From UHGV virus genome UHGV-1690626: a stretch of 14,619 nt of DNA, one strand, 5' to 3'. The stretch comes from a virus. Made by a program: the position numbers and the translations under genes. The notes under the pieces are model-generated. The model did no database searches. It was not told where the DNA came from and saw only the letters and a program-made list of their open reading frames with translations. This document shows, piece by piece, positions 3 to 14,619 of this stretch; within the stretch, counting starts at the first letter, position 1, and each line of letters starts with the position of its first letter.

Positions 3-629
3 CACATACGCTTCCCCGGGCTGAAGGATTTTGTTAGAGACGCGGGTGTTTATAACCGGGATACGTTCAGGAATGTTGTAAACGTAAACCATTTTAATTC
101 ATCAGCTGAATACGAAAATGCTATTGCCCGGGGGCATGACGGCACAGCCAAAAGCCCCCTGGGGATGAGCATCAGGTATCGTTACGAGATAACTGATGAA
201 CTGGGTGTTATAGCCTCTTTTACATGGGCGCGCTCCATGACTAATGCGCAGGCATTTATTGATATTAACCCAGGAGATGAATCCAGAGAGGTTAAAAATC
301 CGGCAGCTTCAGCGAGAACTGATATCAGGGCTAATTACTGGAGCCTGTTAGCGGGTCCTTCGTGGCGGTTTAACGAATACCTCAGTGTGTATGCAATGGC
401 TGGTATGGGCGTAGCTAAAGTTACCGCTGACCTGAAAATTAAGGACAACATTAACAGTACCGGTGGATTTTCTGAAAGCAACAGTACGAAAAAAACAGCA
501 CTTGCATGGGCTGCTGGTGCACAATTTAACCTGAATGAAAGTGTTGCTATGGATGTCGCGTATGAAAGCTCCGGATCTGGTGACTGGCGCACGAGCGGGG
601 TTGTTGTAGGTATTGGCCTGAAATTCTGA
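3..629 (+). CDS. lom: Lom/Ail/PagC-family outer-membrane beta-barrel protein, 5'-partial in this window
   Basis: Frame-3 translation aligns by eye with lambda Lom and Yersinia Ail along its length (IRYRYEITDELGVIASF, YWSLLAGPSWRFNEYLSVYAMAGMG, C-terminal SSGSGDWRTSGVVVGIGLKF ending in an aromatic residue). The frame is open back to nt 3 with no in-frame ATG/GTG/TTG before the ATG at 165 and no signal-peptide-like stretch, so the true N-terminus is either outside the window or lost. Stop TGA at 627-629. Confidence 0.8.
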   Translation, partial: HIRFPGLKDFVRDAGVYNRDTFRNVVNVNHFNSSAEYENAIARGHDGTAKSPLGMSIRYRYEITDELGVIASFTWARSMTNAQAFIDINPGDESREVKNPAASARTDIRANYWSLLAGPSWRFNEYLSVYAMAGMGVAKVTADLKIKDNINSTGGFSESNSTKKTALAWAAGAQFNLNESVAMDVAYESSGSGDWRTSGVVVGIGLKF

Positions 630-651
630 TCTGTATCCGACAACATGTCAT

Positions 652-680
652 AACCCGCTGTGATGGCGGGTTTTTTGTTG
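652..680 (+). terminator. Rho-independent terminator downstream of lom
   Basis: Stem CCCGC (654-658) / GCGGG (666-670) with a 7-nt loop, flanking A-T pairs, then TTTTTTG (671-677), starting 23 nt after the lom stop. Confidence 0.7.
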
Positions 681-706
681 CCCGTGCAGGGCAAAAATCG
701 TAGATT
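678..706 (+). promoter_or_regulatory. Candidate sigma70 promoter for the hok-like transcript
   Basis: TTGCCC (678-683), 17-nt spacer, TAGATT (701-706); 4/6 match to consensus in each hexamer. Its position would give a leader of about 150 nt before the hok-like ORF. Hexamer matching by eye only. Confidence 0.25.
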
Positions 707-861
707 ATGCGCGGGTGCCTTTCGGCTGATGGCTGGAGGGAGAACCTGAAGGCCTGATGTGGAAAGGCCCCGAGTCAAACATTTTGTTTAACCCGAGGCC
801 CTAACCATCATACCTTAAGCAAGTAGAAGGTTAGCGCCTCTCCACTCAGGAGACAAGCGTT

Positions 862-1002
862 ATGTCGCAAAAATCGCTCATCACCGTCACAATTTGTATG
901 ACGGTAATCTTCACCATCTGGATGTTACACGGCTCGTTGTGTGAGTTCCGGCTGAATTTGTGGGGAGCGGAGTTTGCGGCGTTCTTACAGTGTAAGCAGT
1001 AG
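862..1002 (+). CDS. hok: Hok/Gef-family type I toxin (46 aa small membrane peptide)
   Basis: Not in the ORF track (too short). ATG at 862 preceded by AGGAGA (848-853) with 8-nt spacing. Product MSQKSLITVTICMTVIFTIWMLHGSLCEFRLNLWGAEFAAFLQCKQ has an N-terminal hydrophobic helix followed by the SLCE.R ... E.AAF..C pattern I recognise from Hok/Gef/HokA-type toxins. Stop TAG 1000-1002. Confidence 0.6.
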   Translation: MSQKSLITVTICMTVIFTIWMLHGSLCEFRLNLWGAEFAAFLQCKQ

Positions 1003-1013
1003 GAAAACCGCGA

Positions 1014-1035
1014 CGGGGACGAAAGTCCCCGTCAA
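1014..1035 (+). promoter_or_regulatory. GC-rich stem-loop 12 nt after the hok-like stop, candidate mRNA 3' structure
   Basis: GACGGGGA (1014-1021) / TCCCCGTC (1028-1035) perfect 8-bp stem with loop CGAAAG and no U-tract after it. Hok-family mRNAs are known to end in a structured 3' region; the assignment here is by position only. Confidence 0.35.
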
Positions 1036-1058
1036 CTGGTTGCTGAGGTTCAGCCGAT

Positions 1059-1460
1059 ATGGCACCCGTTTCAGGTGAGAGAATGGACGACAGAATTCTC
1101 CGGTATATGCAGCGTGTTGTGAGAAATTCCCGCAACCCTGAATTTATGAATGAAGTTAAAGACGCCTGCCTTAAAAAGCAGGCGTTTTGCTTTGAAGCGC
1201 CGGATGGTTTTCTGGTGCTGCGTTCTGTGCTCAGTGACGATGGTATCCCTTATGTTCTGGTGTTGCTGGGTGTGTGTACGGGGTGTGCCGGTGTTGAGCG
1301 TTATCTGCCGGAGGTGAAGACATTAACCCGCCTGGCTGGCGGACGCTGGGCCGAATTTCATACGGCAAGACGAGGATTTATCCGGCTGGGAAAACGTCTG
1401 GGCTTTGAGCGAATGCCGGATGATGAGGATGGCTTCATGGTGTTCAGGATAGCAGTCTGA
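1059..1460 (+). CDS. Hypothetical 133-aa protein with C-x6-C ... C-x2-C cysteine pattern
   Basis: ORF track ORF; GAGG 10 nt upstream of ATG 1059 (alternative in-frame ATGs at 1083, 1107, 1146). Cysteines at about aa 37, 44, 73 and 76 (VCTGCAG). No family recognised. Confidence 0.5.
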   Translation: MAPVSGERMDDRILRYMQRVVRNSRNPEFMNEVKDACLKKQAFCFEAPDGFLVLRSVLSDDGIPYVLVLLGVCTGCAGVERYLPEVKTLTRLAGGRWAEFHTARRGFIRLGKRLGFERMPDDEDGFMVFRIAV

Positions 1461-1512
1461 CTGCCACTGTATTCATCATCGAGCGTAAACCCACATTGCA
1501 ATTCACATTCTG

Positions 1513-1537
1513 ACCCTGCTCCGGCAGGGTTTTTTGT
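1513..1537 (+). terminator. Rho-independent terminator immediately upstream of the RBS of the five-gene module
   Basis: CCCTGC (1514-1519) / GCAGGG (1524-1529) with loop TCCG, then TTTTTTG (1530-1536); followed by GAGGAG (1543-1548) and ATG at 1554. Confidence 0.7.
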
Positions 1538-1553
1538 TATCTGAGGAGCCATT

Positions 1554-2210
1554 ATGGGCGGAAGTAAAGGTGGTGGTGATACCAAAGTAAAACCAACAGC
1601 AGCGCAAATAGCACAGGAAGAGGTGGCCTGGAAAGGGTGGCAGGATTACAAAAATATTCTCCGTCCGGCAGAAGATAACTTCATGAAAAAGGTCGATGAC
1701 CTTAACAGTGAGCAGCAGTACGAAAATATCGCAGGCACAACAAATCTTGGGTATCAGAAACAGTTTGGTGAAGCGCGAAGGGAGCTGGCGGGTAATCTTG
1801 CTCAGTCCGGCGTTGACCCATCCAGTGGTCGTTTTAATGCAGTAATGGATGCAAATCAAAGCGACCAGGTGATCGGGCAGATTGACACGACCACACGGGG
1901 GCAGGTATCGCAGGCAGATAAATATATTGCCGGGCTACAGGATGTTGCGGCTCTCGGTTCCGGTCAGAAGGCAGATGCGTTACAGAGTTTTAACTCCCTG
2001 GCTGACAGCAGTCTGGCAAAAGCCAAATCGGATGCACAGGCGGCGTTTACGAAACAACAGGGGCGAGCTTCTCTTGTTGGCGCTGGTCTGGGAGCTGTAG
2101 GTGCGTACGCGATGCATAAGGCTGGCGGTAACGGAGGTGGTGGCGGCGCTAAAACGCCAGGCACCGGCGCTAATGCTATTCAGCATCAGGCTCAGAACTG
2201 GAGACTGTAA
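1554..2210 (+). CDS. Hypothetical 218-aa protein, Gly-rich with a C-terminal glycine-zipper-like hydrophobic segment; first gene of the module
   Basis: GAGGAG SD 5 nt upstream of ATG. C-terminal LVGAGLGAVGAYAM followed by GGNGGGGG. Stop lies 2 nt before the next start codon. Confidence 0.75.
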   Translation: MGGSKGGGDTKVKPTAAQIAQEEVAWKGWQDYKNILRPAEDNFMKKVDDLNSEQQYENIAGTTNLGYQKQFGEARRELAGNLAQSGVDPSSGRFNAVMDANQSDQVIGQIDTTTRGQVSQADKYIAGLQDVAALGSGQKADALQSFNSLADSSLAKAKSDAQAAFTKQQGRASLVGAGLGAVGAYAMHKAGGNGGGGGAKTPGTGANAIQHQAQNWRL

Positions 2211-2212
2211 TT

Positions 2213-2659
2213 ATGGAGTATGGCAAATACGAAACTCTCGCAAGGGCTGGTTATTCAGGCGCAGCCCGCCCACAGGGTGACTGGCAGACATCCGCCGCGC
2301 TGACACGCCAGCAATACGACGACTGGCGAACCAGATATTTGCCCCGCGTGGCAAGGCTGGCTGACCTTGGTGAGAACAACAGCCTGATGAATGCACAGCT
2401 TGCCCGGGTGGGCGGCCTTGCCACTTCCAGTCTCCGTACAGCGCAGATGGCGCAGGATAACCAGATGGCACGATATGGCGTTAACCGACCTGATAATCCC
2501 AACAGTAATACGCTGGGGTTACGTAATGCCCTGGCAATTGCTGGCGCGAAAAATGGTATCCGTGAAGCAGAGCAGGATCGTCAGATGAACATACTGACGG
2601 GGGCTTCTGCACCTGCAAGACAGCAACTGAGTGTTGGCGGACAACTGGTGTCAGCTTAA
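2213..2659 (+). CDS. Hypothetical 148-aa protein (Gln/Arg/Ala-rich), translationally coupled
   Basis: ATG 2 nt after the upstream stop; GGAGA about 10 nt upstream inside the previous gene. No family recognised. Confidence 0.7.
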   Translation: MEYGKYETLARAGYSGAARPQGDWQTSAALTRQQYDDWRTRYLPRVARLADLGENNSLMNAQLARVGGLATSSLRTAQMAQDNQMARYGVNRPDNPNSNTLGLRNALAIAGAKNGIREAEQDRQMNILTGASAPARQQLSVGGQLVSA

Positions 2660-2668
2660 GGAGGAAAT

Positions 2669-2920
2669 ATGGGATACGGTTTACTGGATATTGCGAATCA
2701 GTCACGTCGAGAGGCATTACAGGGAATAAGTGACGCCGACAGGCGACGTGAAGAAATTGAGGCTGCTAACAAGCAGATGGCGGCGCAACAGAAAGCGCAG
2801 AACAAACAGAATATCGGCACGGGAATTGGTACGGGTGCAGCTATGGGCGCTGCTGTTGGTGGTCTCCCCGGTGCGGCTATTGGTGCTGTCATAGGTGGTA
2901 TTGCTGGTTCTTTGTTTTAA
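2669..2920 (+). CDS. Small 83-aa protein: charged coiled-coil N-terminus plus C-terminal glycine-zipper (GxxxG) membrane segment
   Basis: AAGGAGG SD ahead of ATG 2669. C-terminal GTGIGTGAAMGAAVGGLPGAAIGAVIGGIAGSLF is a textbook glycine-zipper hydrophobic helix. Confidence 0.75.
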   Translation: MGYGLLDIANQSRREALQGISDADRRREEIEAANKQMAAQQKAQNKQNIGTGIGTGAAMGAAVGGLPGAAIGAVIGGIAGSLF

Positions 2921-2930
2921 GGAGTGGTGA

Positions 2931-4196
2931 ATGAGCGGATTTGCACAGGGTTTACTTGCCGGATTCAGCACGGTTGACCAGGCAATGACCCGTCGTAAGG
3001 AACTTGGTTTGCGAGAAGCACAGCTTGCTCAACAACAGAAAAATAACGAGCGCGATTTTGAATTTGCACAGTCGCAGTTTGAACATAATAAAGACGTTGA
3101 TCAGCGGAACTTTGATTACAGAGCCAAAGTCGACGACCGTAATTATGCACTGCAGGAAAGGGAGTTTAACGCCAACCAGAATTACCGGAATGCGTCGCTG
3201 GGTATGGAGCAGCAGCGACTCCGGATGCAGAAATACAACCAGCGACGGCTTGAGTATAACGATATGCTGGCGCGCGATCAGCCTGTGATGGCGGCGCTTG
3301 GAAAGGCTGTGGATGCTGGCGATCGGGATGCAGCAATGCGTCTTTACGGCCAGTTGTCAGAGGGTAATCCGCTGAGGCTGATGGCGAATGATGGCTATGT
3401 AGCGAAAGCGGGTCAGGCCGTGAACAACCTGCAAAAAATCTTTGATGACAAGCCGGACAGGGCTATCGCTTCACTTAATACGCCGGAGAATCTTGATGTC
3501 CTTTCCGGGGTGTTTGGCCCGGAACTGCAACAGCGTATTGGCATGCCCGATTCAACCGGGAAAAAGACGATAAAAGAGGCCAGGATTGGCAGTATCGTAC
3601 CGGCGCAGCAGGAAGGGTACGTACTTATTGGCCTTGATCTCACATACAGCGATGGCTCCACCGCGCATAAACCTGTAACAGAATACGGCAGTGCACATCC
3701 TGATGATCAAACCGTGCTGGCGGTGCCTGTTGATAAGGCTGTTGAGCTTGTCAGGGATCGCAGTAAATTCGCGGAAATTTCGAAAAATTTCGGCTATTTC
3801 ACGCCGAAGCAGCAGGGACTTTCTCTGGCGAAACTTCAGGAAGGAGCCAGCAGTGTAGCGGCGGAAGCGATCAAGAACGGCGGGAATGCTCAGGCGGCGG
3901 TGGATGAGTATTACGCTGCAACTGGTTCACCGCAACATCAGCAGAAAATTCAGCAGCAAAAAATTCAACAAGGGATTACCAGTTGGGCGGGTGATGATCC
4001 GGATAAGCAGGCATTCGCCAGAGAAGTTGCTTCCCGTCAGCCAGAAATGCTGGAGCCTCAGAATCAGAAATTGCTGGAAAACGGGTATGCGAATTTTCTC
4101 CGTATTCAAAAGGCTAAGGGGGAACAGGCCAGAGATGATAGTGCGGCCTCTGCATCTGAGTTTATCCGTGGTCTGAAACAGAATTACGCGCAGTAA
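2931..4196 (+). CDS. Hypothetical 421-aa protein with Gln/Arg-rich predicted coiled-coil N-terminal third
   Basis: AAGGAG SD ahead of ATG 2931, which is the first in-frame start after a TGA. Contains the QQKIQQQKIQQ repeat (nt about 3942-3975). No enzymatic motif recognised. Confidence 0.75.
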   Translation: MSGFAQGLLAGFSTVDQAMTRRKELGLREAQLAQQQKNNERDFEFAQSQFEHNKDVDQRNFDYRAKVDDRNYALQEREFNANQNYRNASLGMEQQRLRMQKYNQRRLEYNDMLARDQPVMAALGKAVDAGDRDAAMRLYGQLSEGNPLRLMANDGYVAKAGQAVNNLQKIFDDKPDRAIASLNTPENLDVLSGVFGPELQQRIGMPDSTGKKTIKEARIGSIVPAQQEGYVLIGLDLTYSDGSTAHKPVTEYGSAHPDDQTVLAVPVDKAVELVRDRSKFAEISKNFGYFTPKQQGLSLAKLQEGASSVAAEAIKNGGNAQAAVDEYYAATGSPQHQQKIQQQKIQQGITSWAGDDPDKQAFAREVASRQPEMLEPQNQKLLENGYANFLRIQKAKGEQARDDSAASASEFIRGLKQNYAQ

Positions 4197-4227
4197 TTCA
4201 CCATTCCTGTTAATACTATTTCCTGAT

Positions 4228-4253
4228 ACCCGGTCATTGTGCCGGGTTTTTTT
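4228..4253 (+). terminator. Rho-independent terminator immediately upstream of the giant gene's RBS
   Basis: ACCCGG (4228-4233) / CCGGGT (4242-4247) with loop TCATTGTG, then a run of seven T (4247-4253); GGAG at 4256-4259 and ATG at 4265. Confidence 0.75.
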
Positions 4254-4264
4254 ATGGAGTCTGT

Positions 4265-7200
4265 ATGGCTTATTCCGATGAACAGCGCCCTGAAGCGCAA
4301 TTTGGCAACCAGAACCGCAACAGCCTGAACATTCAGCAGCCGGGCGAGACTGACAGCTATGATGCGTTTTTCTCCGATCCCAATCGCTGGAAGGACAACA
4401 GCACGTCGTTCAGCCTGGGCGATGTATTGCCAACTATGGGGAAAGGTGTCGCCCAGTCCATCCGGGGGACAGGGGAAATGGCCCGTGGACTCGGTGATGC
4501 GATGATTCAGAGTCCTGTAAAAACAGGGGCGCGTATTTTAAATGAGTTCAGCCGTATGGGGCTGCCGGGAGTCGCAACTGTTCAGGATATTTTTGTCGGT
4601 GGCAGCAAGGGGGCGGATGAGGTCATCGACACTCTGCCTGATGGAAAAAATGCGGTTACTGATACTGTCGGTAAAGGTCTGAAGGCCACAGGCAAGGCAG
4701 TCAGTGATGGTGCCAAAGCCTCGGATGAATGGCTGACAGATCAGATGTCGCCGGGTGCTGTTCGTGCGCTGAACACGCCAATGAGTGAAGGCTATGATGA
4801 TTCTGCGGTCTTGCTGACGAAGGGTGTAAACCTGATTGGTGCGCTTGTACCTGATCTGGTTGCAGGCGGTGTGACTAAAAAGCTGGGTGAAGTCACTCTG
4901 CGAAAAGTGCTGACCGCCGGGCTGGAGAAAAAATACATTGCGGCAGGGATGCAGCCGGAAAGAGCTACCGCACTGGCAGCAGAAGCTGTCGATAAAAAAA
5001 TGCCGGATTTATTCCAGGCAGGCCTGATCACCCATTCCTCAGCCAGCGCACAGGGGCAGAGTGCAATGGCAGCAGCAGACTCTGTTCTTAACGCGGATTA
5101 CTCTGAGCTGGCGAAGTCCCCGAAATTTCAGCAGACGTTTTTGTCAATTGATGCAGATCCGCAGCACGCACAGCTTACTGATCGCCAGAAAATGGATCTG
5201 GCAAAAGAGCGTGTTGCCGATGAGGTGCGCGCGCAGCTGGCAACCGATCCTCAGTTGCTGGCTGTGAATGCCATGGCGGCAAAACTGGGCGATGCACAGT
5301 TGCTTAATCTGGCGATGCGGGGTACGGCGAAGACCGTTAAGAGCGGCATTATCAGAAACGCCACAGAACAGGGCGTAATTAACGGGGCGCAGGGCGGCTA
5401 TTCGCGTTACCAGGAAAATATGGCGTTGCGTGAGACCGCCGGAATGGATGTGTCGCCGTGGGAGGGCGTGGCTGACGCAACAATCGACGGTGCTGCTCTT
5501 GGTGCAGCGATGGGGGCTCCATTTGGCGCGGTTGCCGGATATCGTGGCAGACGTCAGGCCGCAGACGAAGCCGCCATGCGTGAGGCTGAAGTCGTACAGC
5601 AGGGTGAAGCAGCCCCGCAACCCGAACCGGTTGATCCGGTGGCACAGCATCGTGAATCCATGCAGGGCATGAACCGCGAGCAGCTTCTGGAACAGTATGC
5701 TGATGCGGATATGGCACATGAGGGAGACACGTCTGCCGTTCATCGCCGGGAAGCCGCCAGCCAGCTGTTAAATGAACTGGATGAACAGGCGAAGCGACAG
5801 GCGGTGATGGATGAGCTGAAGGCGAAGCCGCGCCCTGAACTGCTTGAGGAATACCGAAAACTCAGCCTGAAGGAAGGGCGTACTGATACTGAAGAGCAGC
5901 AGTTACAGGCTATCCGTGATGTGCTTCGCCCTCAGCAGGAGGCCAGACCGGAGGCACAGCCACAGCCGGAAAATGCGGATGATGGCGACGGGAGTATTTA
6001 CCCGACGGTGCGGTTCCGCGATCCGGATGAAGTTCGTATTGAAATTAACGGGAGTGGTGCGTCCAGACCAGCAGAACGCATTGAAAAGGTGCGTCCGGAC
6101 AACCGTTATTTCACGGATGAAAAAAGTGCTCTGGGGAGCGACGTTTTCCGCAATGCCAGCGCCACCGGCCTGAAACCGTCCGTAGTGAAGAAAGGCGAGA
6201 ATCAGTATGCCGTTGAAATGGATAATCCTGCGTTCTCTGAAGATGTGGCAACGGAGACCATTAACACTCTGGCTGACGGAGAGCGTATTACTGATGCTGA
6301 TCCGATGGAACAGCCCGCGTTCATGCGTGACCCGCGATTCCGTGGTTTCACGGGGGATGATACAGAAGTGCAGGCCCGCCTTGCCCGTGGCAACGCGCCG
6401 ACGGCAGAGGAGCTTGTACGTTCACAGATGGCTGAAGGTGATGCCGGTCCGACAGCACAGGAGTTAACTGAGCGTCCACGCCTTCCCGCTCCCGGCGATA
6501 TTCATCCCGGACAGGGATATCCGTTACCAGGAGAAGTGGCGCGTACGCCGGATGAAAATCAGGCCGGACGTGGTGGTCGTTTTACCACAACCGGTGAGGT
6601 GAAGGGCCAGAGTTTCCAGAAAGGACGTGCGCAGGCACCGGAAAATGCCGCTGGTCGCCAGGGGGAAATACTGGAGGGCGAACCGGTTCGTCGTGGTCTG
6701 CCGTCACCGGATGAGCAGAACGCCACAGCACCAGTGCGTGAAGGACTTCCTGCACCTGAACAGCGTGGGGTTGATATGCCACATCCTGAATCACTCCCTC
6801 GTATGGTTCGTGACTCCCTTCCGGAACTGGCACAGCAGGCAGAAGCGCGCAGACAGACCGGGGATAATCGCCAGACCATAACCGATGTTCCGGATACTGA
6901 GGTGCCGGTGCCGGTGCCGGTAGATAAACCGAGCACTCACCAGCAGGCGCGTGGTGCAAAAATAGAAGACTTTGGCGAGGAGATTAAGGGCGCGGCAAAA
7001 CACCGTTATGCACAGCTTGCCGAAACACTGGGTAAAACGCTGGAAGACAGGGATTATGTCACGCAACCGCTGAGCAAACTGTTCCCGAAACCGGACTACG
7101 CAAAACTGGCGAACGAAGGTGCCGATGCTGATACCCTGGCAATGATAGCGCTGTATCGTAGCGATATTCCGGCGAAGACGAAACACAATACGGCTGGCTG

Positions 7201-10200
7201 GGGGGAGAGCGTAAAAAAAGTACGACACAGTGTATCGGAAATGCTGAACGGAACGGTCAGCGCGAAACGCCTCGCAGAATGGATGGAAGGCAGAATGCCC
7301 TCCCGTTACGCGGATACCTGGCAACTGTTACGCACGCTGCCACCTTCACAGATGGACAAGGCTTCTGCTTATCGGGTGGTATCGGGTGTGTATCAGGCGG
7401 CAGGAGGGAAGCGTTACGATCCGCCACAGAAACTTTATTCACTGCGCAATAAGGACAATAAGGGGACTAACCTCTTTTTCTCGGAAAGCAGGGATGAATT
7501 ACTGACAAAGGCGAAAGTCTGGTTTGCAGAGCTGGAGGAAAAGTCACAGGCGAAAGGTGATGAAAAAACAGCACCGTCACCGGATGACAAAATCAGCTTT
7601 GACGTTTACCGGAATACCCGCAGTGGCGATATTTTTATCGCTTATGGCAAAAACAAAATGCGGGTGAGAGGTGGCTTTAAGTCAGCCAGTGATGCGCGTA
7701 AGTACATTGATTCACATCGTGATGAGCTTGTTCGTCATGTGAAGGAGATGCGGGAGATTTCGCGTGAGGAGCAGCGTAACGCCACCAACCGCGATCGTAC
7801 CGGACCAGAACGCCGCAAGGGGGATGTTTCGCCGGAGCAGTTCAGTGATGCGTTTGGTTTTCGTGGTGTGCAGTTTGGTAATTATGTGGAAGGTCCGCGT
7901 CGTCAGGCTGATTTGAACCGGGCTTATGACTCGCTGCATGACCTGGCTGATGTGCTGAACGTGCCGACAAAAGCGCTTTCTCTGAACGGTCGTCTTGGGC
8001 TTGCTTTTGGTGCCCGTGGTAAGGGTAAGGCGGCGGCACACTATGAGCCGGGTGAGGTGGCAATCAACCTGACAAAAGGTAACGGACCGGGGGCGCTGGC
8101 CCACGAATGGTTCCATTCACTGGATAATTATTTTGGTCGTTATGATGTTTCCACTGACGGGAAGATCACGTCAGGTGGCGACTATATGACGGAAGCACAG
8201 CGTGCCGGGCGCGTATTTAAAGACGGCAGATATGTTGATGCGGAATATCCGGTACGTCAGGAGGTTTACGACGCGTTTAAAGGCGTGATGAAAGCGATCA
8301 ACAGCAGTGACATGCCGCGTCGTTCAGCGCTTCTCGATGAGGTGCGCTCAAAACCGTACTGGTCAACGGATGTTGAAATGGCGGCGCGTGCCTTTGAGCG
8401 TTATGTTCAGGATAAAGCGCGTACGGCTGGCGTGGAGAATGATTATCTGGTCAATATCCGTAAGGCACCTGAGCACAACACAGATAACACCTGGGCTTAT
8501 CCGACGAATGCGGAACTGGATGGTGGCATTCGTGAGGCATTCGATCACCTGTTCCGCACCCTGAAAACCCGTGAGACGGACAAGGGCGTTGCGTTTTATT
8601 CCCGTAAGGGCGTGACCCGCACACCTGAAGGCAATCTCATTTCGGATGTTAACCGCAGTGCGGAAGCCAAAGGCAGCCCGGTCCCGCAGGTTGAAGCGGT
8701 TGCCCGTGGCGTGATGAGTGGCATTAAGGACAGTGACCTGAAGGTCCGCGTGGTGAAGTCACAGAAAGAGGCTGAAGCACTGGCGGGTGAATCATTCGAC
8801 GGTTACGGCAAGGTGCACGCGTTCTATCGTCCGGATAAACGTGAAATTGTCCTGGTGGCGGATAACATTCCTGACGGGCGGACCGTTCGCGAGAAGCTGC
8901 GTCACGAGATTATCCACCATGCAATGGAGCATGTAGTCACGCCAGCGGAATATCAGACGATTATTAAGACCGTACTGAAAACCCGTGACAGTGATAACGC
9001 CACCATCCGTGAAGCCTGGCGTAAGGTTGATGCGTCTTATGGTAAGGAATCACCGGAAGTGCAGGCGGGTGAATTTCTGGCACATATGGCGGAGAAACAG
9101 CCGAATAAATTCGTGGCGGCATGGGAGCGTGTTGTTGCCCTGGTCAAAGGGGTACTGCGTCGCACGGGGTTACTGAAGCCGACAGAGCTGAACGATATCA
9201 GACTTGTTCGCGAAACTATTCGCACGTTAGGCCAGCGTGTGCGGGAAGGTTACACGCCGCGTGAGGATGGCGCTGGCGCATCGTCTCAGTACTCCCGTAG
9301 CGGTAAGCCTGATCCGTTCAAAGTGCCGGAAGGTGAGGGCGAGCGTTATCGTGATGACCTTGCCAGAATGATGAAGTCTCTGCGCTCAACGGATTTAACG
9401 GTAAACATCGGGCGTACGCCGCCGGTATTGCGTCACCTTGGCGCACCAGATTTGCCGCTGGTTATCTCCCGCGACACTGTGCGTAAGGCCACCAATGGTG
9501 TGAAACATGTGGTGCCGATGGATGTTATCGAGAGACTACCGGAACTGATGCACGATCCGGATGCAATTTACCGTTCCGCGACAGAAAGAAATGCGGTTGT
9601 GATGCTGCTTGATGCCATGGATAAAAATGGTGATCCTGTAGTGTCAGCGGTACACATGAAGGCTGTCCGGTCGCGCCTGGAAATCAACAAGGTAGCTTCA
9701 GTTTACGGTACAGAAAATGGAAAAAAACTGAAGAGTATGGAAATGACCGGGTTAACGTTGTACCGGAGAGAAAAATTAAGCCGCGATAACCTTCTGCACA
9801 GAGGGCTTCAATTGCCCAAAGGGGAACATTCTTATCGCGGCTCTGCGGATAAAATACTCTATCCTGAAGATATTCGCAAGGGGCCGCATTACTCCCGTAC
9901 CAGCAGTCTGACACCGGAAGAGACAATTGCATCGCGTTTTGTGCGCCAGATGCAGGATAAATTCCAGGTGCTGAAAGCTGTTCAGGAGAATATCCGTAAA
10001 ACTGGCGGAAAAATAGACGACAGTAACAACGCTTATATGGCAGAAGAACTCTTCCACGGGAAGGCGGAAAACGACCTGAACGTGATGAAGGAGCGCTATG
10101 TTCAGCCGCTGGCTAAATTACTGGCGGACTACAAAATTGCGCAGGCCGATCTGGATGAGTACCTCTACGCCCGTCACGCGCCGGAACGTAACGCGCATAT

Positions 10201-12634
10201 CGCGAAAATCAACCCGAAAATGCCGGACGGCGGTTCGGGGATGACCAACGCGGAAGCGGCGGAAATCATGCAGCGTGTGCGTAACAGTGGCAAACAGGCA
10301 CAGTATGACCGTCTGGCAGGGATTGTTGACGATATGCTGGCCCGTCGCCGTGAGCTTATCCGTGAGGCCGGACTGGAAGAGAGCGGTGTGGTGGATGCCT
10401 GGCAGAAAGCCTACCGTTACTACGTTCCCCTGAAAGGGCAGGATGTTGACGGTGTGGTGTCACTGCCCCGTACAGGTAAAGGCTTCACTATCGGCGGACG
10501 TGAAAGCAGGCAGGCCATGGGGCGTGCATCCCGCGCACAGTCTCCTTCCACTCAGGCGATACAGGATTTGAGCGAATCGCTGATCCGCAATCGCAAAAAT
10601 GAAGTGGGTAACGCCTTCCTGAAACTGGTACAGGATAATCCAGACAAGGATTACTGGCAGGTATTCACCAATGAGCGACCGGACACCATGCGTGCGATTG
10701 CAGAGCGTGTTGTTCCGGAAACCGGTGAAACCCGTCACGAAGTTGTCGAACGTCCTGTACCGATGGCAATGATGGCAGACCGGTACTTCACCACCAAAAA
10801 GAACGGCAAAACGTACTACATCAAACTCCATGATCCGCGCCTGATGCGTGCGATGAAGAATATGGGACCGGAAACCAGTAACGCCGTAATCCGCACGCTG
10901 GGGAAAGTTAACCGCTTCCTGGCAACGGTGAACACGTCGTATAACCCGGAATTTCTGGTCAGTAACTTCATCCGTGACGTGCAGACGGCGGTGATGAACC
11001 TGAAGGCGGAGCAGGGAAGGAGCGACGGTAAACTGAAAGGGCTGGATAACTTATCCGCCCTGGCTGTGGTGAAAGACAGCCGTTCTGCCATGTCAGCCGT
11101 ATACGCCAGTCTGCGTGGTAAAACCCTCACGGGCAAAGGCGCACAGTGGCAGAAAGTGTGGAAAGAGTTTGTTGAGGACGGAGGTAAAACCGGCTGGTTT
11201 AACATGGGTGACCTTGAAGGCCAGCAGAAGGAAATGGATCGCCTTGTATCGCTGGCGAAGGGAGGATGGAAAGGCCAGAGTATCGGTGCATGGAATTCGT
11301 TCCTTAACCTTGTCGAGGATGCCAACGGTGCGGTTGAAAACGCTCTGCGTCTTTCTGCCTATAAACACGCCCGTGATGCTGGTTTGTCACGCCAGCAGGC
11401 GGCGTCTCTTGCCAAAAACATGACGGTGAACTTTAACCGTCGTGGTGAGCAGGGAGCGCTGATGAACTCGCTGTATATGTTTGCCAACGCCAGCATTCAG
11501 GGGACCGCAAACCTGGTGAGAACGCTCGGACATCTTAATGGCGACGGGCCGTTACCGGAGCGCCTTCGCTGGAAGAATCTCAATGTACCGCAGAAAATCG
11601 CGCTTGCAGCTGTGGGAGCGGGTTATCTGCTTGGCTCGCTTAACCGCAGTGTTGCGGGGGAGGATGATGACGGGGTTAACTGGTATGACAAGGTGCCGTC
11701 TCATGTGAAAGAGCGTAACCTCGTCATTATGAAATCGGTGTTCGGGGGCAAGGCCGGAGAGTACTGGAGTATTCCTCTGCCTTACGGGTACAACGTTTTC
11801 TTCCTGCTCGGGCATACTGCTGAAGGTGTGGCAGCGGGCGACCTGACTGCTTCACGTGCTGCCGGTAATGTTGTCGGTGGTATCCTGGGGGCATTCAGTC
11901 CTGTGGGCAGTGAAACGTCGGAAACACTGTCCGGGGCATTGCTGAAAAATGCAGCGCCGACCATTCTGCGTCCGTTTGCGAACCTTGCCATGAATGAAAA
12001 CTTCATGGGGGCGCAGATTTACCAGGAGAACATGCCATTTGGCACACCGAAACCGGACAGCCAGCTGGGCAGACGTTCAACGCCTGAGGCGTACAAGGCG
12101 TTTGCATCCTGGCTGAATGCGTTCTCAGGTGGCAGCCAGTATCGTCCCGGCGCGGTGGATATCACACCGGAATCGCTGAAATTCTGGATTGACTATATCT
12201 CCGGAGGGACAGGGCGCTTCATTTCCAAAACCACAGATGCGGCGGTGAAATCGCTGAACGGTATTGATATACCGGAGCAGCAGGTGCCCTTCCTGGGGAA
12301 AATTTCGGGTGAGGTGATGCCGTATGCTGACCAGCAGAAGATGTATGACCGGATGACGGAGGTTGCGCAGTACCACGCAGAGCTGAAGAGTCTGACCGGT
12401 GCAGAAAGAACGGCATTCATTGACGAGAACAACGGAAAATTGTCGATGAACGGGCTTATGCAGGATACCCGGAAGAGACTGAAGGATTTGCGTAAACAAC
12501 GTGATGCCATTTACGCCGACAGTACTCTCAGTCTGGCGCAACAGTCGGCGATGGTGAAATCGGTAGAGCGGGATATGAAAATTGCCGTGGATCGGTTTAA
12601 CCGCGAGTACAACAAAAAAGTGGGAGTGGATTAA
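4265..12634 (+). CDS. Giant 2,789-aa multidomain protein with two HExxH zincin-like motifs; candidate virion-delivered polyvalent or ejection protein
   Basis: Uninterrupted 8,370-nt ORF with GGAG 6 nt upstream. ALAHEWFHSLD at aa 1280-1284 (nt 8102-8116) and LRHEIIHHAMEH at aa 1547-1551 (nt 8903-8917). Acidic Pro/Glu/Gln/Arg-rich low-complexity stretch at aa about 430-900. Glycine-zipper-like segment IDGAALGAAMGAPFGAVAGY at aa about 405-425. Hydrophobic/Gly-rich stretches in the C-terminal 700 aa. No Walker A, DEAD-box or single-subunit RNA polymerase motifs seen by eye. Reality of the CDS is high confidence; function is inference. Confidence 0.85.
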   Translation: MAYSDEQRPEAQFGNQNRNSLNIQQPGETDSYDAFFSDPNRWKDNSTSFSLGDVLPTMGKGVAQSIRGTGEMARGLGDAMIQSPVKTGARILNEFSRMGLPGVATVQDIFVGGSKGADEVIDTLPDGKNAVTDTVGKGLKATGKAVSDGAKASDEWLTDQMSPGAVRALNTPMSEGYDDSAVLLTKGVNLIGALVPDLVAGGVTKKLGEVTLRKVLTAGLEKKYIAAGMQPERATALAAEAVDKKMPDLFQAGLITHSSASAQGQSAMAAADSVLNADYSELAKSPKFQQTFLSIDADPQHAQLTDRQKMDLAKERVADEVRAQLATDPQLLAVNAMAAKLGDAQLLNLAMRGTAKTVKSGIIRNATEQGVINGAQGGYSRYQENMALRETAGMDVSPWEGVADATIDGAALGAAMGAPFGAVAGYRGRRQAADEAAMREAEVVQQGEAAPQPEPVDPVAQHRESMQGMNREQLLEQYADADMAHEGDTSAVHRREAASQLLNELDEQAKRQAVMDELKAKPRPELLEEYRKLSLKEGRTDTEEQQLQAIRDVLRPQQEARPEAQPQPENADDGDGSIYPTVRFRDPDEVRIEINGSGASRPAERIEKVRPDNRYFTDEKSALGSDVFRNASATGLKPSVVKKGENQYAVEMDNPAFSEDVATETINTLADGERITDADPMEQPAFMRDPRFRGFTGDDTEVQARLARGNAPTAEELVRSQMAEGDAGPTAQELTERPRLPAPGDIHPGQGYPLPGEVARTPDENQAGRGGRFTTTGEVKGQSFQKGRAQAPENAAGRQGEILEGEPVRRGLPSPDEQNATAPVREGLPAPEQRGVDMPHPESLPRMVRDSLPELAQQAEARRQTGDNRQTITDVPDTEVPVPVPVDKPSTHQQARGAKIEDFGEEIKGAAKHRYAQLAETLGKTLEDRDYVTQPLSKLFPKPDYAKLANEGADADTLAMIALYRSDIPAKTKHNTAGWGESVKKVRHSVSEMLNGTVSAKRLAEWMEGRMPSRYADTWQLLRTLPPSQMDKASAYRVVSGVYQAAGGKRYDPPQKLYSLRNKDNKGTNLFFSESRDELLTKAKVWFAELEEKSQAKGDEKTAPSPDDKISFDVYRNTRSGDIFIAYGKNKMRVRGGFKSASDARKYIDSHRDELVRHVKEMREISREEQRNATNRDRTGPERRKGDVSPEQFSDAFGFRGVQFGNYVEGPRRQADLNRAYDSLHDLADVLNVPTKALSLNGRLGLAFGARGKGKAAAHYEPGEVAINLTKGNGPGALAHEWFHSLDNYFGRYDVSTDGKITSGGDYMTEAQRAGRVFKDGRYVDAEYPVRQEVYDAFKGVMKAINSSDMPRRSALLDEVRSKPYWSTDVEMAARAFERYVQDKARTAGVENDYLVNIRKAPEHNTDNTWAYPTNAELDGGIREAFDHLFRTLKTRETDKGVAFYSRKGVTRTPEGNLISDVNRSAEAKGSPVPQVEAVARGVMSGIKDSDLKVRVVKSQKEAEALAGESFDGYGKVHAFYRPDKREIVLVADNIPDGRTVREKLRHEIIHHAMEHVVTPAEYQTIIKTVLKTRDSDNATIREAWRKVDASYGKESPEVQAGEFLAHMAEKQPNKFVAAWERVVALVKGVLRRTGLLKPTELNDIRLVRETIRTLGQRVREGYTPREDGAGASSQYSRSGKPDPFKVPEGEGERYRDDLARMMKSLRSTDLTVNIGRTPPVLRHLGAPDLPLVISRDTVRKATNGVKHVVPMDVIERLPELMHDPDAIYRSATERNAVVMLLDAMDKNGDPVVSAVHMKAVRSRLEINKVASVYGTENGKKLKSMEMTGLTLYRREKLSRDNLLHRGLQLPKGEHSYRGSADKILYPEDIRKGPHYSRTSSLTPEETIASRFVRQMQDKFQVLKAVQENIRKTGGKIDDSNNAYMAEELFHGKAENDLNVMKERYVQPLAKLLADYKIAQADLDEYLYARHAPERNAHIAKINPKMPDGGSGMTNAEAAEIMQRVRNSGKQAQYDRLAGIVDDMLARRRELIREAGLEESGVVDAWQKAYRYYVPLKGQDVDGVVSLPRTGKGFTIGGRESRQAMGRASRAQSPSTQAIQDLSESLIRNRKNEVGNAFLKLVQDNPDKDYWQVFTNERPDTMRAIAERVVPETGETRHEVVERPVPMAMMADRYFTTKKNGKTYYIKLHDPRLMRAMKNMGPETSNAVIRTLGKVNRFLATVNTSYNPEFLVSNFIRDVQTAVMNLKAEQGRSDGKLKGLDNLSALAVVKDSRSAMSAVYASLRGKTLTGKGAQWQKVWKEFVEDGGKTGWFNMGDLEGQQKEMDRLVSLAKGGWKGQSIGAWNSFLNLVEDANGAVENALRLSAYKHARDAGLSRQQAASLAKNMTVNFNRRGEQGALMNSLYMFANASIQGTANLVRTLGHLNGDGPLPERLRWKNLNVPQKIALAAVGAGYLLGSLNRSVAGEDDDGVNWYDKVPSHVKERNLVIMKSVFGGKAGEYWSIPLPYGYNVFFLLGHTAEGVAAGDLTASRAAGNVVGGILGAFSPVGSETSETLSGALLKNAAPTILRPFANLAMNENFMGAQIYQENMPFGTPKPDSQLGRRSTPEAYKAFASWLNAFSGGSQYRPGAVDITPESLKFWIDYISGGTGRFISKTTDAAVKSLNGIDIPEQQVPFLGKISGEVMPYADQQKMYDRMTEVAQYHAELKSLTGAERTAFIDENNGKLSMNGLMQDTRKRLKDLRKQRDAIYADSTLSLAQQSAMVKSVERDMKIAVDRFNREYNKKVGVD
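6902..6919 (+). repeat. In-frame tandem hexanucleotide repeat (GTGCCG)x3 encoding VPVPVP
   Basis: ggtgccggtgccggtgccggta read directly in the sequence, inside the low-complexity region of the giant gene. Confidence 0.9.
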
Positions 12635-12642
12635 CAGAAATG

Positions 12643-12664
12643 GCCCCGTACGGAAGTGCGGGGC
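12643..12664. other. Strong hairpin with GGAA tetraloop 9 nt after the giant gene stop
   Basis: GCCCCGTAC / GTGCGGGGC 9-bp stem (one G-U pair) with loop GGAA. No U-tract on the plus strand; a modest U-rich stretch follows on the minus strand. Confidence 0.5.
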
Positions 12665-12757: not shown

Positions 12758-12949
12758 ATGTTTAATGAAGAAAAAGTTGCGTAAATGGCAGCGTATTTGC
12801 TGAAAAAGCATGGCGGATCTATGCGTTTCATTAAGCTGATGAAGCTGATGTATCTCTCTGACCGCAAAGCAATGGAGTCTTTAACCGGGAAGGGGAGAGG
12901 TTTGAATGCTCCCCCACAATTCCCCGGCATCAAATCTCCATGCAGGTGA
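12758..12949 (+). pseudogene. Degraded remnant resembling the N-terminus of a Panacea (DUF4065)-domain protein
   Basis: ATG 12758 gives MFNEEKVA, then an in-frame TAA (12782-12784), then MAAYLLKKHGGSMRFIKLMKLMYLSDRKAMESLTG. This matches the remembered N-terminal pattern of Panacea-domain proteins (KLxKLxY), but the downstream part of the domain is missing and the frame ends at 12949. Confidence 0.3.
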
Positions 12950-13023: not shown

Positions 13024-13596
13024 TCATTGGCGTACCTCCTTCGGCGGTTCTGGTAGCGGCATCCAGTGGGTTACTTCTTTGAGATGCAGGTCTTCGCCAT
13101 CACCGTCATCCCAAGTGGGATTGCCATCATTAAACCAGTCGCCATATACGCCGACCTGAGTGTTGGGGATGCTTGGTGGGTAGTTGTTTTTAAAGTCAGC
13201 TGCTAACACATAGTATTGTCGCTCTCCCATTTCTGGCATCCGCTCACTACAGCTTATCCAACTATCCGGAGTTCCCGGAGAGTTGCCATTTACATCGAAG
13301 TTTGGCTCTGCGTCCTGAACCAGGAGGATGTAACCATTCTTGGCAGTATCAAGTTCTAACGCCTCGGTGACGGTGCCGAAATAGCGATTACCTAAATCAG
13401 CATCACAAGTGCTTACATCAATGGAAACTTCCATGCCCTCGATTAATTCTGGCAAGTTGTAAGTTTGGCTTACAGGTTCGGCTTCCAGAGATGCCAGCGC
13501 AATCCGTGCAAGTTCCATTTGTTCGCCACGGGTAAGTCCGTTATCAAGCGGATTTTTAATGAATAATTCGATACGTTCTTTGGTTATAGCGCTCAT
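13024..13596 (-). CDS. DUF551-domain phage protein (190 aa)
   Basis: C-terminal LKEVTHWMPLPEPPKE matches the W-x-P-L-P-E-P-P signature I associate with DUF551 proteins of lambdoid early regions. ATG at 13596 with AAGGAG SD chosen over the TTG at 13677 reported in the ORF track. Start lies 1 nt after the upstream gene's stop. Confidence 0.65.
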   Translation of the reverse strand: MSAITKERIELFIKNPLDNGLTRGEQMELARIALASLEAEPVSQTYNLPELIEGMEVSIDVSTCDADLGNRYFGTVTEALELDTAKNGYILLVQDAEPNFDVNGNSPGTPDSWISCSERMPEMGERQYYVLAADFKNNYPPSIPNTQVGVYGDWFNDGNPTWDDGDGEDLHLKEVTHWMPLPEPPKEVRQ

Positions 13597-13597
13597 C

Positions 13598-14383: not shown

Positions 14384-14619
14384 TTTTCTCTTCGCTCCGG
14401 TATACAAGAATTACAACGTCACCTCTGCTAATTACGCGAGCTGGACCTCCTGGCTCCATGCTGTCAATCCCGAAGGCTTCGGAAAACGCATTCATTGCCT
14501 TCTGGCGTTGATCCTGCTTACGGCATTTATTCCATTTTTTCAGTAACAACAGCGATAGCCACCGCCCGGCGCAGAACATAATGTAAAAATAACCAAGAAG
14601 CGCCAGACCTGTGTTGAGG
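14370..14619 (-). CDS. Hypothetical protein, 3' part only (5' end beyond window), with a hydrophobic stretch
   Basis: Minus-strand frame is open from the window edge to the stop at 14370-14372. Contains LALLGYFYIMFCAGRWLSLLLL. Overlaps the Ea22-like start by 14 nt. Confidence 0.4.
   Translation of the reverse strand, partial: LNTGLALLGYFYIMFCAGRWLSLLLLKKWNKCRKQDQRQKAMNAFSEAFGIDSMEPGGPARVISRGDVVILVYRSEEKNERD

Follow-up and report, generated by a model that had tools for sequence, protein, structure and literature searches.

What is the role of intrinsic terminators that stand directly in front of ribosome-binding sites in the middle of a phage late operon? The question is raised by the stretch of DNA analysed here (the window, 14,619 nucleotides of the virus genome UHGV-1690626), in which a GC-rich hairpin with a run of T ends a few nucleotides before the Shine-Dalgarno sequence (SD) of a gene at two places. 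We refer to the one before the virion protein gene g218 as T1 and to the one before the giant gene of the locus as T2. An earlier note on this DNA had proposed that the genes behind them can be expressed only by read-through, as in the late transcription of lambda under Q antitermination.

The Locus and Its Late-Operon Setting

The window comes from a lambdoid prophage of the 933W/phi24B type, i.e., of the Shiga-toxin type of E. coli, and covers the distal end of its late operon; from 600 to 4800 it is 97% identical to PhiR5_2. The window ends short of the region of the late regulators, and the lambda-type context that had been supposed is found in the relatives. In phi24B, Q, pR', qut and tR' all lie upstream on the same strand as the late genes, while PhiR5_2 has a Q-like gene (PHROG E = 3e-68; PHROGs were matched, Pfam and NCBIfam were not) followed by a tR'-like terminator. 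T1 and T2 are located ~25–28 kb downstream of tR'. A search of the phage collection in distant mode gave relatives only at 78–99% identity, which is too little divergence for a strong test of covariation, and the search of genome contigs with g421 had as its sole match a 552-bp “Xanthomonas pisi” contig, probably contamination. Scanning the whole window against Rfam (E up to 1) gave no match at T1 or T2; the matches elsewhere were a sub-threshold sok, a spurious snoRNA and a Trp-leader that is T0 (below) itself. A literature search for ECs1237–ECs1242 found no transcript-level study, and PMC6580645 is without phage-gene data.

All the features described here are on the + strand. The window opens within lom (1–629, 5' end cut by the window; Pfam Ail_Lom E = 4e-31, annotated by PGAP in L001), which codes for an Ail/Lom outer-membrane protein and is an inserted gene expressed from the prophage. 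Behind it come an intrinsic terminator, T0 (652–679, stem 652–672, six T), with a stem that is invariant in 47 loci, and a hok/sok toxin-antitoxin locus (713–1068, hok CDS 862–1002) recognized by an Rfam sok match below the gathering score (E = 4e-6) and by Pfam HOK_GEF. The 5' end of the hok mRNA (713–730) pairs with 1048–1068 (duplex of −30.9 kcal/mol), and its inferred promoter, read by eye, has a −35 at 678–683 and a −10 at 701–706. The GC content differs slightly between the lom region (0.46–0.49) and the module that follows (0.52–0.58). Next lies ORF133 (1083–1460), a conserved late-operon gene with homologs 66–70% identical in the relatives L053 and L054; PGAP starts it at 1059, the likely true start at 1083 gives 125 amino acids, and the alignment to PHROG 610 begins at residue 9. 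Inside its coding sequence there is a strong terminator-like hairpin with a T-rich tail, Ti (1159–1195), where 8/8 synonymous-capable codons are identical against a gene-wide background of 47–58%; this hairpin may be due to chance.

The first four genes behind T1 form the internal-protein module. They are g218 (1554–2210, 218 amino acids; vb_24B_44 or “gp51” of phi24B; 82 PSM in purified virions and a weak PHROG match to a virion structural protein), g148 (2213–2659; “gp50,” 83 PSM), g83 (2669–2920; a small glycine-zipper membrane protein annotated as “bacteriocin,” 6 PSM in virions, Pfam Gly-zipper_YMGG at E = 4.5e-6, below cutoff, also present in the Vibrio phage module) and g421 (2931–4196; “gp48,” by position ORF79 of Sp5, 179 PSM). 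The fifth gene behind T1 is the giant gene (4265–12634), whose product of 2789 amino acids is an encapsidated ejection protein with the polyvalent-protein domains LPD5, LPD1, MuF_C and LPD38 of Pfam. A hairpin free of any T-run (12643–12664) follows its stop codon, and there the + strand late unit ends.

Three published lines indicate that the genes downstream of T1 and T2 are late: they are linked to induction, they code for virion proteins and they are needed for infectivity. In phi24B, RT-qPCR showed that the giant gene follows induction and that lom is constitutive, and the products of all five genes behind T1 are present in purified virions. Among the deletions made in Sp5, that of ORF76 (probably g218) sharply reduced infectivity, that of ORF79 (taken as g421) gave particles that had packaged DNA and were non-infectious, and that of ORF80 (the giant gene) was non-infectious as well, the gene not being needed for packaging. 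The giant protein is abundant in virions, yet it is not in the cryo-EM map.

Two Terminators Among About a Dozen

T1 (1512–1538) has an 8-bp stem, GACCCTGC/GCAGGGTT (1512–1531), closed by a UCCG loop. Six T follow at 1530–1535, the run beginning within the last stem position, and then GTT up to 1538. The SD of g218 (GAGGAG, 1543–1548; ATG at 1554) is 4–7 nt from the end of the T-run. T2 (4228–4253) has a 7-bp stem, ACCCGGT/GCCGGGT (4228–4247), a 6-nt loop and seven T (4247–4253) that also start inside the last stem position, and from there it is only 2 nt to the SD of the giant gene (GGAG, 4256–4259) and 11 nt to its ATG at 4265. The arrangement described by the earlier note is therefore present at both sites, and the folding energies that it had proposed as a check agree with it: −14.6 kcal/mol for T1 (z = −4.4; 0/200 shuffles fold equally well) and −11.2 kcal/mol for T2 (z = −2.8; 2/200 as stable). 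A simple consensus terminator scan lists the two as well. Folding gave the terminator hairpin alone at T1 and T2, with no competing pairing of the kind expected for an attenuator or a riboswitch leader. We also considered an anti-SD at T2, where UUCC at 4220–4223 could pair across the hairpin with the SD of the giant gene, as UUCCA could with UGGAG in L053; this was rejected by eye, the pairing being found neither in the L035 clade nor in the distant lineages.

Among the relatives the hairpins are maintained over a changing background. At T1, 0/16 stem columns and 1/7 T-run columns are variable vs. 14/51 in the spacer, and at T2, 0/6 T-run columns vs. 20/31, these upstream spacers being the most variable segments of the region. 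Its least variable part is the segment from the T-run to the SD (0/6 and 1/14 variable columns). The pairing at T2 holds in 100 and 97.6% of the cells, against 24–52% in slid registers. Two pairs of T2 are altered on both sides, as is one pair of T1 (in L053), although these compensatory changes amount to few independent events, both pairs of T2 coming from one clade and that of T1 also from one.

T1 and T2 are not alone. We defined strict terminators as uninterrupted stems of at least 6 pairs with dG ≤ −10.5 and at least 4 consecutive T. The complete 36-kb late unit of phi24B has 12 of them on the late strand and 2 on the other, when 24 dinucleotide shuffles of the unit gave a mean of 0.04 sites. 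Their placement is also far from random: 9/11 sites are strictly intergenic, even though non-coding DNA is 9.6% of the unit (binomial P = 3e-8). In all there are about 12 late-strand terminators, 9 or 10 of them intergenic, and in relatives the major capsid gene and the gene behind it are likewise each followed by a terminator ≤ ~20 nt before the next ATG. With a GC stem, a short loop, a 3' T-run, the sense strand, a non-coding gap and compensatory change, the sequence indicates that T1 and T2 are genuine terminators, two of about a dozen. The earlier count of two hairpins at this locus was right for these sites and too low overall, with T0 (652–672) in the same window and the others along the late unit.

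The 2–7 nt between each terminator and its SD are too few for a promoter, as had been claimed, so that any transcript carrying these ribosome-binding sites includes the hairpin. A scan from 600 to 4265 found no promoter-like site on the + strand; being a weak consensus test that misses the hok promoter too, it leaves the argument resting mainly on the spacing.

T2 Is Conserved Far More Deeply Than T1

The evolutionary depth of the two terminators is very different, a point that had been missed before. Every lineage that was sampled, from clades at 59–69% protein identity to others down to 25–31%, has a T2-equivalent immediately before the giant gene. In ~20 loci at 25–31% identity, 9 kb of the + strand hold no strong terminator besides it, or hardly any, and the Vibrio podovirus 252E42.2 has a terminator 5' of its giant gene as well. 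All lineages keep a T-run of 5–8 T, with one interruption in the Vibrio phage. The distance to the SD is ~12 nt from the T-run in the distant enterobacterial-type lineages and 85–150 nt from the terminator in L122 and the Vibrio phage. In the latter the ~85 nt after the terminator contain the promoter-like TATATAAT and TTCACC-17-TATGAT, and therefore the ancestral role may have been the separation of two transcription units rather than gating by antitermination. The leader after the T-run is alike even at 28% protein identity, and TGGAG together with an N-terminus M-(A/T)-Y is found in nearly all the lineages sampled. This conserved SD and N-terminus put the start of the giant gene at the ATG after the hairpin; the deposited phi24B record begins it upstream of the hairpin.

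T1 stands where the tail genes end and the internal-protein module begins. It is retained in clades at 57–66% identity and missing from L111 and L113, and by its distribution it would be a younger boundary terminator, kept only in the closer clades; the most distant lineages, which do without it, can therefore dispense with a gate at this point. T1 and ORF133 are found together in relatives that have neither lom nor hok, so that the independence of T1 from these two genes stands. T1 is always after ORF133. An apparent independence from ORF133 in L053–L055 was rejected, as the 123-aa gene upstream turned out to be an ORF133 homolog.

The new point is the conservation of the terminator before the giant gene in very distant phages, which on comparative grounds makes T2 an old element of its 5' flank.

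What the Terminators May Do

Several explanations other than read-through by an antiterminated polymerase have to be weighed. One possibility, which we consider open to real doubt but which is compatible with the reading preferred below, is that T1 and T2 are stoichiometric attenuators at which a fixed share of the lytic polymerases stops, after the logic of T-phi in T7, lowering the downstream blocks and the giant protein most of all. This is among the roles named by the phage L authors and would suit a terminator that accompanies the giant gene in every lineage. In the published figures, which are fold changes and spectral counts and not absolute levels, RNA-seq induction goes from 15.8 before lom to 8.3, 7.0, and 7.3 (~7.5) after T1 and to 5.6 after T2, and the giant protein has 1.4–2 fold fewer crude PSM per residue than g218, g148 and g421. 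However, a hairpin terminator is expected to be ignored by Q-modified polymerase, and the steps are small, confounded by unequal basal levels and by a gradient along the whole operon (from 134 for S down to 30 for the portal gene), with p = 0.31 for the giant gene. The attenuation of the giant protein that had been suggested is thus compatible with these values, unproven, and at most ~1.3–2 fold. Hairpins that stabilize the mRNA between cistrons are a known device, and an unlikely explanation is that termination is incidental and the element acts on RNA, as a 3' barrier that shields the upstream cistrons from exonucleases entering by way of the long message of the giant gene, or as a hairpin and U-tract leader that stabilizes or boosts the downstream one. 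In the window the U-run touches the SD, and the low variability from T-run to SD and the similarity of the leader among distant lineages would both agree with this. But a stabilizer has no need for a U-tract, and every lineage keeps one; the long distance to the SD in L122 and the Vibrio phage is a poor fit to a translation enhancer; and the strand bias along the operon and the canonical form of the hairpins match termination.

The two remaining explanations concern origin and promoters. A moron, i.e., an insert of promoter, gene and terminator (PMC3594210), is a good description of lom with T0 and of hok, all of them absent in some syntenic relatives (lom and hok from L053 and L055), with lom constitutive and T0 placed where the terminator of a moron is expected. 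T1 could then be the terminator of an inserted lom/hok/ORF133 block and T2 a similar relic; the hok promoter is indeed upstream of T1 in this lineage, and the lambda lom terminator is 16 nt before the next late gene. We find this improbable, and as an account of the origin of T1 and T2 it is already contradicted. Both are kept in relatives that have neither lom nor hok, where the ORF133 homolog retained with T1 begins 2 nt after the tail-tip gene and therefore has no promoter of its own. T2 has an essential virion gene on each side, and its conservation reaches well past any insert. The genes behind T1 and T2 are linked to induction, in contrast to the expression of lom from the repressed prophage. 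It is more improbable still, to the point that we give it hardly any weight, that the giant gene is a transcription unit by itself, started from its own promoter and in no need of read-through. The promoter-like motifs of the Vibrio phage are in its favor, but the window leaves 2 nt to the SD and 11 nt to the ATG behind the T-run, the sequence overlapping the hairpin is GC-rich and has no −10-like hexamer, the scan found no candidate upstream of 4265, and the distant enterobacterial-type lineages have only their ~12 nt.

The explanation that we prefer, and consider likely, is that T1 and T2 are Rho-independent terminators within one late unit that are passed by Q-modified polymerase and block unmodified polymerase; probably only the phage-modified RNA polymerase reads through them. 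Given the late, virion nature of the genes behind them, and a giant gene linked to induction vs. a constitutive lom, we infer that read-through by Q-modified polymerase is well supported. In the lysogen, unmodified polymerase that had started at the constitutive promoters of lom and hok or at stray sites would halt at T1 or T2, and g218, g148, g83, g421 and above all the 8.4-kb gene of the ejection protein would be silent. Upon induction, Q would join the polymerase at pR'. Q is a ring in the RNA exit channel that prevents hairpin formation (PMC6606751), and a polymerase so modified, with no terminator hairpins forming in the channel, would pass T0, Ti, T1, T2 and the other terminators of the late operon. 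A small step-down in giant-gene mRNA or the shielding of upstream mRNA from 3' decay may come in addition.

We would go one step further only tentatively. The giant gene may have in T2 an ancient gate of its own, shared by phages as distant as Vibrio podoviruses and Stx phages irrespective of the gene that precedes it, and, in the same speculative vein, a polyvalent ejection-protein gene of 8–9 kb may be harmful or too costly when its expression is leaky or unscheduled. In that case its transcription would be left to antiterminated polymerase alone or, where the phage has no Q, to a promoter dedicated to it. Genes for giant injected effectors would then follow a general design rule, and terminators inside operons would have a defined role. 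T2 is a clean case for that role, being short and intergenic, with pairing under visible selection and one essential gene behind it, and the phages that carry it include Sp5 and phi24B, for which there are clean deletions, complementation, virion proteomics and cryo-EM. The silence of a large virion-delivered protein in lysogens of Shiga-toxin phages, with the lom and hok promoters active upstream, is a further question on which T2 bears.

Comparison With Known Systems

Intra-operon terminators are a known design of late operons, and lambda and P22 share it at lower density: one and the same scan finds 12 in 36 kb here, 4 in 26.5 kb of lambda and 3 in 22 kb of P22 (a difference of ~twofold). 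T7 has the terminator T-phi after capsid gene 10, a partial terminator that separates head from tail and internal-core genes and sets their ratio; it works with T7 RNA polymerase and no antitermination factor, and partial termination is demonstrated there and conjectured for T1 and T2. Within the same operon a parallel is tR' of the Stx phages, the source of the StxS small RNA, an intrinsic terminator overcome by Q and mapped by Term-seq in strain Sakai (GSE143631). However, tR' is a regulatory switch at the start of the unit, and T1 and T2, far along it, are predicted from sequence. Whereas lom with T0 and hok/sok behave as morons, the presence of T1 and T2 is not tied to that of any insert. 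The ant terminator of P22 is similar in that it lies in the late operon upstream of tailspike gene 9, a structural gene expressed late; the amount of tailspike is thought to be set by late polymerase crossing this stretch. Yet the ant terminator sits in a variable inserted region (immI), while T2 is between two conserved essential virion genes. The P22 stem-loop after the coat gene is annotated as common to HK97 and lambda, and the capsid gene of phi24B is followed by one too. In lambda, the terminators of the D–E gap, the I–J gap and lom resemble T1 and T2 in having a hairpin and a T-run on the late strand in short gaps, and those at 6097–6118 and 19612–19633, downstream of Q and pR', are 16–17 nt from the next late ATG. 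Phage L has a terminator of this kind in its procapsid module, and the phage L genome paper describes intra-operon terminators as known and their roles as not known. For the sites of lambda and phage L, a tie to one gene across distant phages, such as T2 has to the giant gene, is not reported.

The late region and its gene map

Positions 600–4800 share 97–98% identity with E. coli chromosomal prophages and phage PhiR5_2, and 93% with many Stx2a-converting phages. On the same strand of the close relative L001, the region comes after a capsid gene of N4-gp56 type and the tail genes. The window is thus the distal end of the late region in a short-tailed lambdoid prophage of the 933W/phi24B type (Sepvirinae). 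On the plus strand lie lom (1–629, cut by the window start), the hairpin and T-run terminator T0 (652–672), hok/sok (713–1068), ORF133 (1083–1460), terminator T1 (1512–1531), g218 (1554–2210), g148 (2213–2659), the glycine-zipper protein gene g83 (2669–2920), g421 (2931–4196), terminator T2 (4228–4247) and a giant gene of 2789 aa (4265–12634). The giant protein contains LPD5, LPD1, MuF_C and LPD38 domains and is therefore a polyvalent protein, while g218, g148 and g421 are members of conserved phage families without known function.

The layout of the hok mRNA is recognisable at 678–1068. Its promoter, read by eye (-35 TTGCCC at 678–683, -10 TAGATT at 701–706), begins at the T-run of T0 and places the transcript start near 713. 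The 5′ end of this mRNA (713–730) can pair with 1048–1068 in a duplex of -30.9 kcal/mol that resembles the fold-back of the hok family, and the ORF133 start called by PGAP (1059) falls within this fold-back. From the PHROG profile and the distant homologs, the ATG at 1083 is more likely to be the true start. The ORF133 coding sequence itself contains a strong terminator-like hairpin, Ti (1159–1195), with an energy of about -15 to -18 kcal/mol and a tail rich in T; the minus strand is flagged here as well. Relatives at 66–70% protein identity retain the hairpin, and the most distant lineages lack it. All eight of its codons that could change synonymously are identical at the nucleotide level (gene-wide background 47–58%), and the sole amino-acid change is located in the loop.

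Immediately behind the stop codon of the giant gene there is a GC hairpin (GCCCCG...CGGGGC, 12643–12664) with no plus-strand T-run, so that the late unit lacks a canonical terminator at its own end. L001 and PhiR5_2 have an intact Panacea-domain gene behind the giant gene; its copy here (12785–12949) is truncated, with homology ending at 12878 after ca. 31 native codons, a 9-nt duplication (KLM KLM), and unrelated sequence beyond. Directly after the late end, lambdoid genes of early-left type (DUF551, Ead/Ea22, DUF4752) are found on the minus strand at 13024–14579, ca. 90% identical to phi24B 2843–3737. The ibrAB, antirepressor, attachment-site and integrase genes of the relatives are absent at this junction, which is a product of rearrangement or deletion.

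Two terminators directly in front of ribosome-binding sites

The earlier note had placed an intrinsic terminator directly before the ribosome-binding site (SD) of two genes, and this is borne out to the base. T1 has the stem GACCCTGC/GCAGGGTT, a UCCG loop and six T, followed after 4–7 nt by the SD GAGGAG and then by the ATG at 1554. T2 has the stem ACCCGGT/GCCGGGT, a 6-nt loop and seven T, and only 2 nt separate it from the SD GGAG of the giant gene (ATG at 4265). Folding energies, proposed there as a check, were -14.6 kcal/mol for T1 (z = -4.4) and -11.2 kcal/mol for T2 (z = -2.8). A further case of a terminator immediately before a ribosome-binding site was seen in the related locus L054 (3153–3190), where a strong one (-20.7 kcal/mol, six T) abuts the SD (GGGAG) of a DUF4376 gene that lies behind a hok gene.

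In the phi24B record (L051 19149, i.e., phi24B 49148) and in the ORF list used for its proteomics (49136), the giant gene begins before the T2 hairpin. Nearly all lineages sampled conserve an SD TGGAG and, at the N-terminus, M-(A/T)-Y, which put the start codon at the ATG behind the hairpin, in agreement with PGAP.

Conservation of T1 and T2

Close relatives were compared over 48 viral loci with g421 at 76–98% protein identity. None of the 16 columns of the T1 stem varied, against 14 of 51 in the upstream spacer (Fisher P = 0.016), and the loop showed U/C variation. T1 is also kept in clades at 57–66% identity, where one pair has been replaced in both halves of the stem (C-G to A-U) and the loop reads UUCG; it is absent in the most distant lineages. 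The 57–66% clades have neither lom nor hok, and the gene before T1 is an ORF133 homolog that starts 2 nt past the tail-tip gene. T1 is thus genuinely an intra-operon terminator, bordering the tail module, and did not come in with the lom/hok insert.

The T2 stem occurs in three versions among the same 48 loci. Two pairs carry a double substitution (A-U to G-C and G-C to A-U), with pairing kept in all cases, whereas registers shifted by 1–3 columns pair in just 24–43%; as the changes stem from one clade, the independent compensatory events are few. The T-run had no variable columns out of six, compared to 20 of 31 in the spacer. A protein search with the giant N-terminus retrieved loci at 59–68% identity, and a profile search of viral contigs added a 67–69% clade and ca. 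20 loci at 25–31%. Throughout the 59–69% clades T2 reads GCCCGG-CATTATGA-CCGGG(T/C), then five or six T, the SD and the ATG. At 25–31% the stems are dissimilar (AAGCCTCGCC/GGCGGGGCTT, AAGCCTCAC/GTGGGGCTT, AGCCTCA/TGAGGCT and a weak CCGC-UUCG-GCGG), each followed by 7–8 T and located 25–31 nt ahead of the ATG; one lineage (L122, L127 and L131) has a strong terminator ca. 150 nt upstream instead. In these distant loci there is no, or hardly any, strong plus-strand terminator within 9 kb besides the equivalent of T2. This equivalent adjoins the giant gene even when 1–2 kb of extra genes separate the latter from the g421 homolog, so that T2 is part of the giant gene's 5′ flank and not of the 3′ end of g421. 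The Vibrio podovirus 252E42.2 has the same module with a terminator in the equivalent gap, and behind it ca. 85 nt bearing promoter-like motifs.

In three assemblies made from public read sets, the giant ORF was called as two genes: L053 (7001–15231; 565+2187 aa), L055 (7001–15232; 445+2296 aa) and L054 (7001–15695; 564 plus at least 2318 aa). A 552-bp contig of a Xanthomonas pisi assembly (NZ_JPLE01000287.1) carries the g421 N-terminus at 92% identity and is most likely contamination by an E. coli phage.

Products and expression of the downstream genes

A cryo-EM and proteomics preprint on phi24B found the giant protein abundant in purified virions and missing from the density map, and proposed that it is an encapsidated ejection protein. 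According to its supplementary table, the batch virion sample contained the products of all five genes after T1, with spectral counts (PSM) of 746 (giant), 179 (g421), 83 (g148), 82 (g218) and 6 (g83), compared to 101 for the portal. The g83 product, detected at this low level, was set aside as a contaminant by those authors. It is labelled “bacteriocin” in several records, belongs to the conserved module even in the Vibrio podovirus, and may truly be a membrane protein that is a minor part of the virion or takes part in ejection. In the related phage Sp5, in-frame deletion of ORF80 (the giant gene) or ORF79 (by position g421) left DNA packaging normal and the particles non-infectious, and deletion of ORF76 (probably g218) caused strong impairment.

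By RT-qPCR, giant-gene expression in phi24B is tied to induction, while the upstream lom was equal in lysogens and induced cells, a result surprising to its authors. RNA-seq of the same phage gave fold inductions of 22, 15.5 and 15.8 for the tail genes located upstream of lom, 3.0 for lom, 8.3 for g218, 7.0 for g148, 7.3 for g421 and 5.6 for the giant gene. The genes from g218 to the giant gene are thus late genes, and their transcription must cross T0, T1 and T2.

Role of the terminators

The family has the lambdoid late switch, with Q, pR′, qut and tR′ in phi24B. In PhiR5_2 a Q-like protein is followed by a terminator, and nearly all genes from there to the giant gene share one strand. Q sits in the RNA exit channel as a ring that keeps hairpins from forming (PMC6606751), which explains passage through many hairpin terminators. 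It is likely that T1 and T2 are real terminators read through by antiterminated polymerase, and the reading of a late operon in the earlier note is right in its main line, with read-through predicted to depend on Q. We think that their main role is that of a gate: in the lysogen, the hok and lom promoters point at the virion-protein module, and T0, Ti, T1 and T2 would stop their transcripts. In addition, giant-gene mRNA could be lowered modestly, or the upstream mRNA protected.

Both additions are compatible with a gate, and each might instead be the whole explanation. That the terminators serve purely to attenuate is a minority possibility. The attenuation of the giant protein foreseen previously survives weakly, as a small step-down allowed by the fall in induction from 7.3 to 5.6 fold; judging from these fold changes and crude spectral-count ratios, it may reach at most about 1.3–2 fold. 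A role of the hairpins at the RNA level is somewhat less probable still. A regulated attenuator is unlikely, since conservation is lowest in the upstream spacers and T1 and T2 matched no Rfam family. The view that both came as terminators of morons fails, because relatives devoid of lom and hok keep T1, and T2, set between two essential virion genes, has a conservation that extends well past any insert. A promoter of the giant gene's own is very improbable, there being no room for it in the lineage of the window. The gate remains our preferred explanation.

Terminators in other lambdoid late operons

We scanned the full phi24B genome, for which a full annotation is available, with one strict terminator definition. 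Its late unit (36.3 kb from pR′ to the giant gene stop codon) had 12 strong sites on the late strand against two on the other, and 24 dinucleotide shuffles gave a mean of 0.04. The earlier note had counted two; both are real, but they are part of a larger set. Nine of 11 sites were strictly intergenic, even though non-coding sequence makes up only 9.6% of the unit (P = 3e-8), and a tenth is intergenic if PGAP gene calls are used. They comprise the tR′ pair, single sites before stx, after stxB and after the portal gene, a site 20 nt ahead of the gene following the capsid gene, and one in the next gap; T0, T1 and T2 are the rest of the intergenic set, and Ti lies inside ORF133.

The identical scan found four sites in the lambda late unit (26.5 kb), including one 17 nt before E and another after lom, 16 nt before the next late gene, and three in P22, among them the ant terminator, which precedes tailspike gene 9. 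The P22 database record also notes a stem-loop behind the coat gene, and the phage L genome paper, which treats such elements as known features, put forward two possible roles, partial termination or the halting of transcription started without antitermination. With these counterparts in lambda, P22 and phage L, T1 and T2 belong to a recognised class, to which they are well-conserved additions. Their particular contribution is that T2 has stayed with one gene over a great evolutionary depth, which makes it well suited to testing the role of intra-operon terminators.
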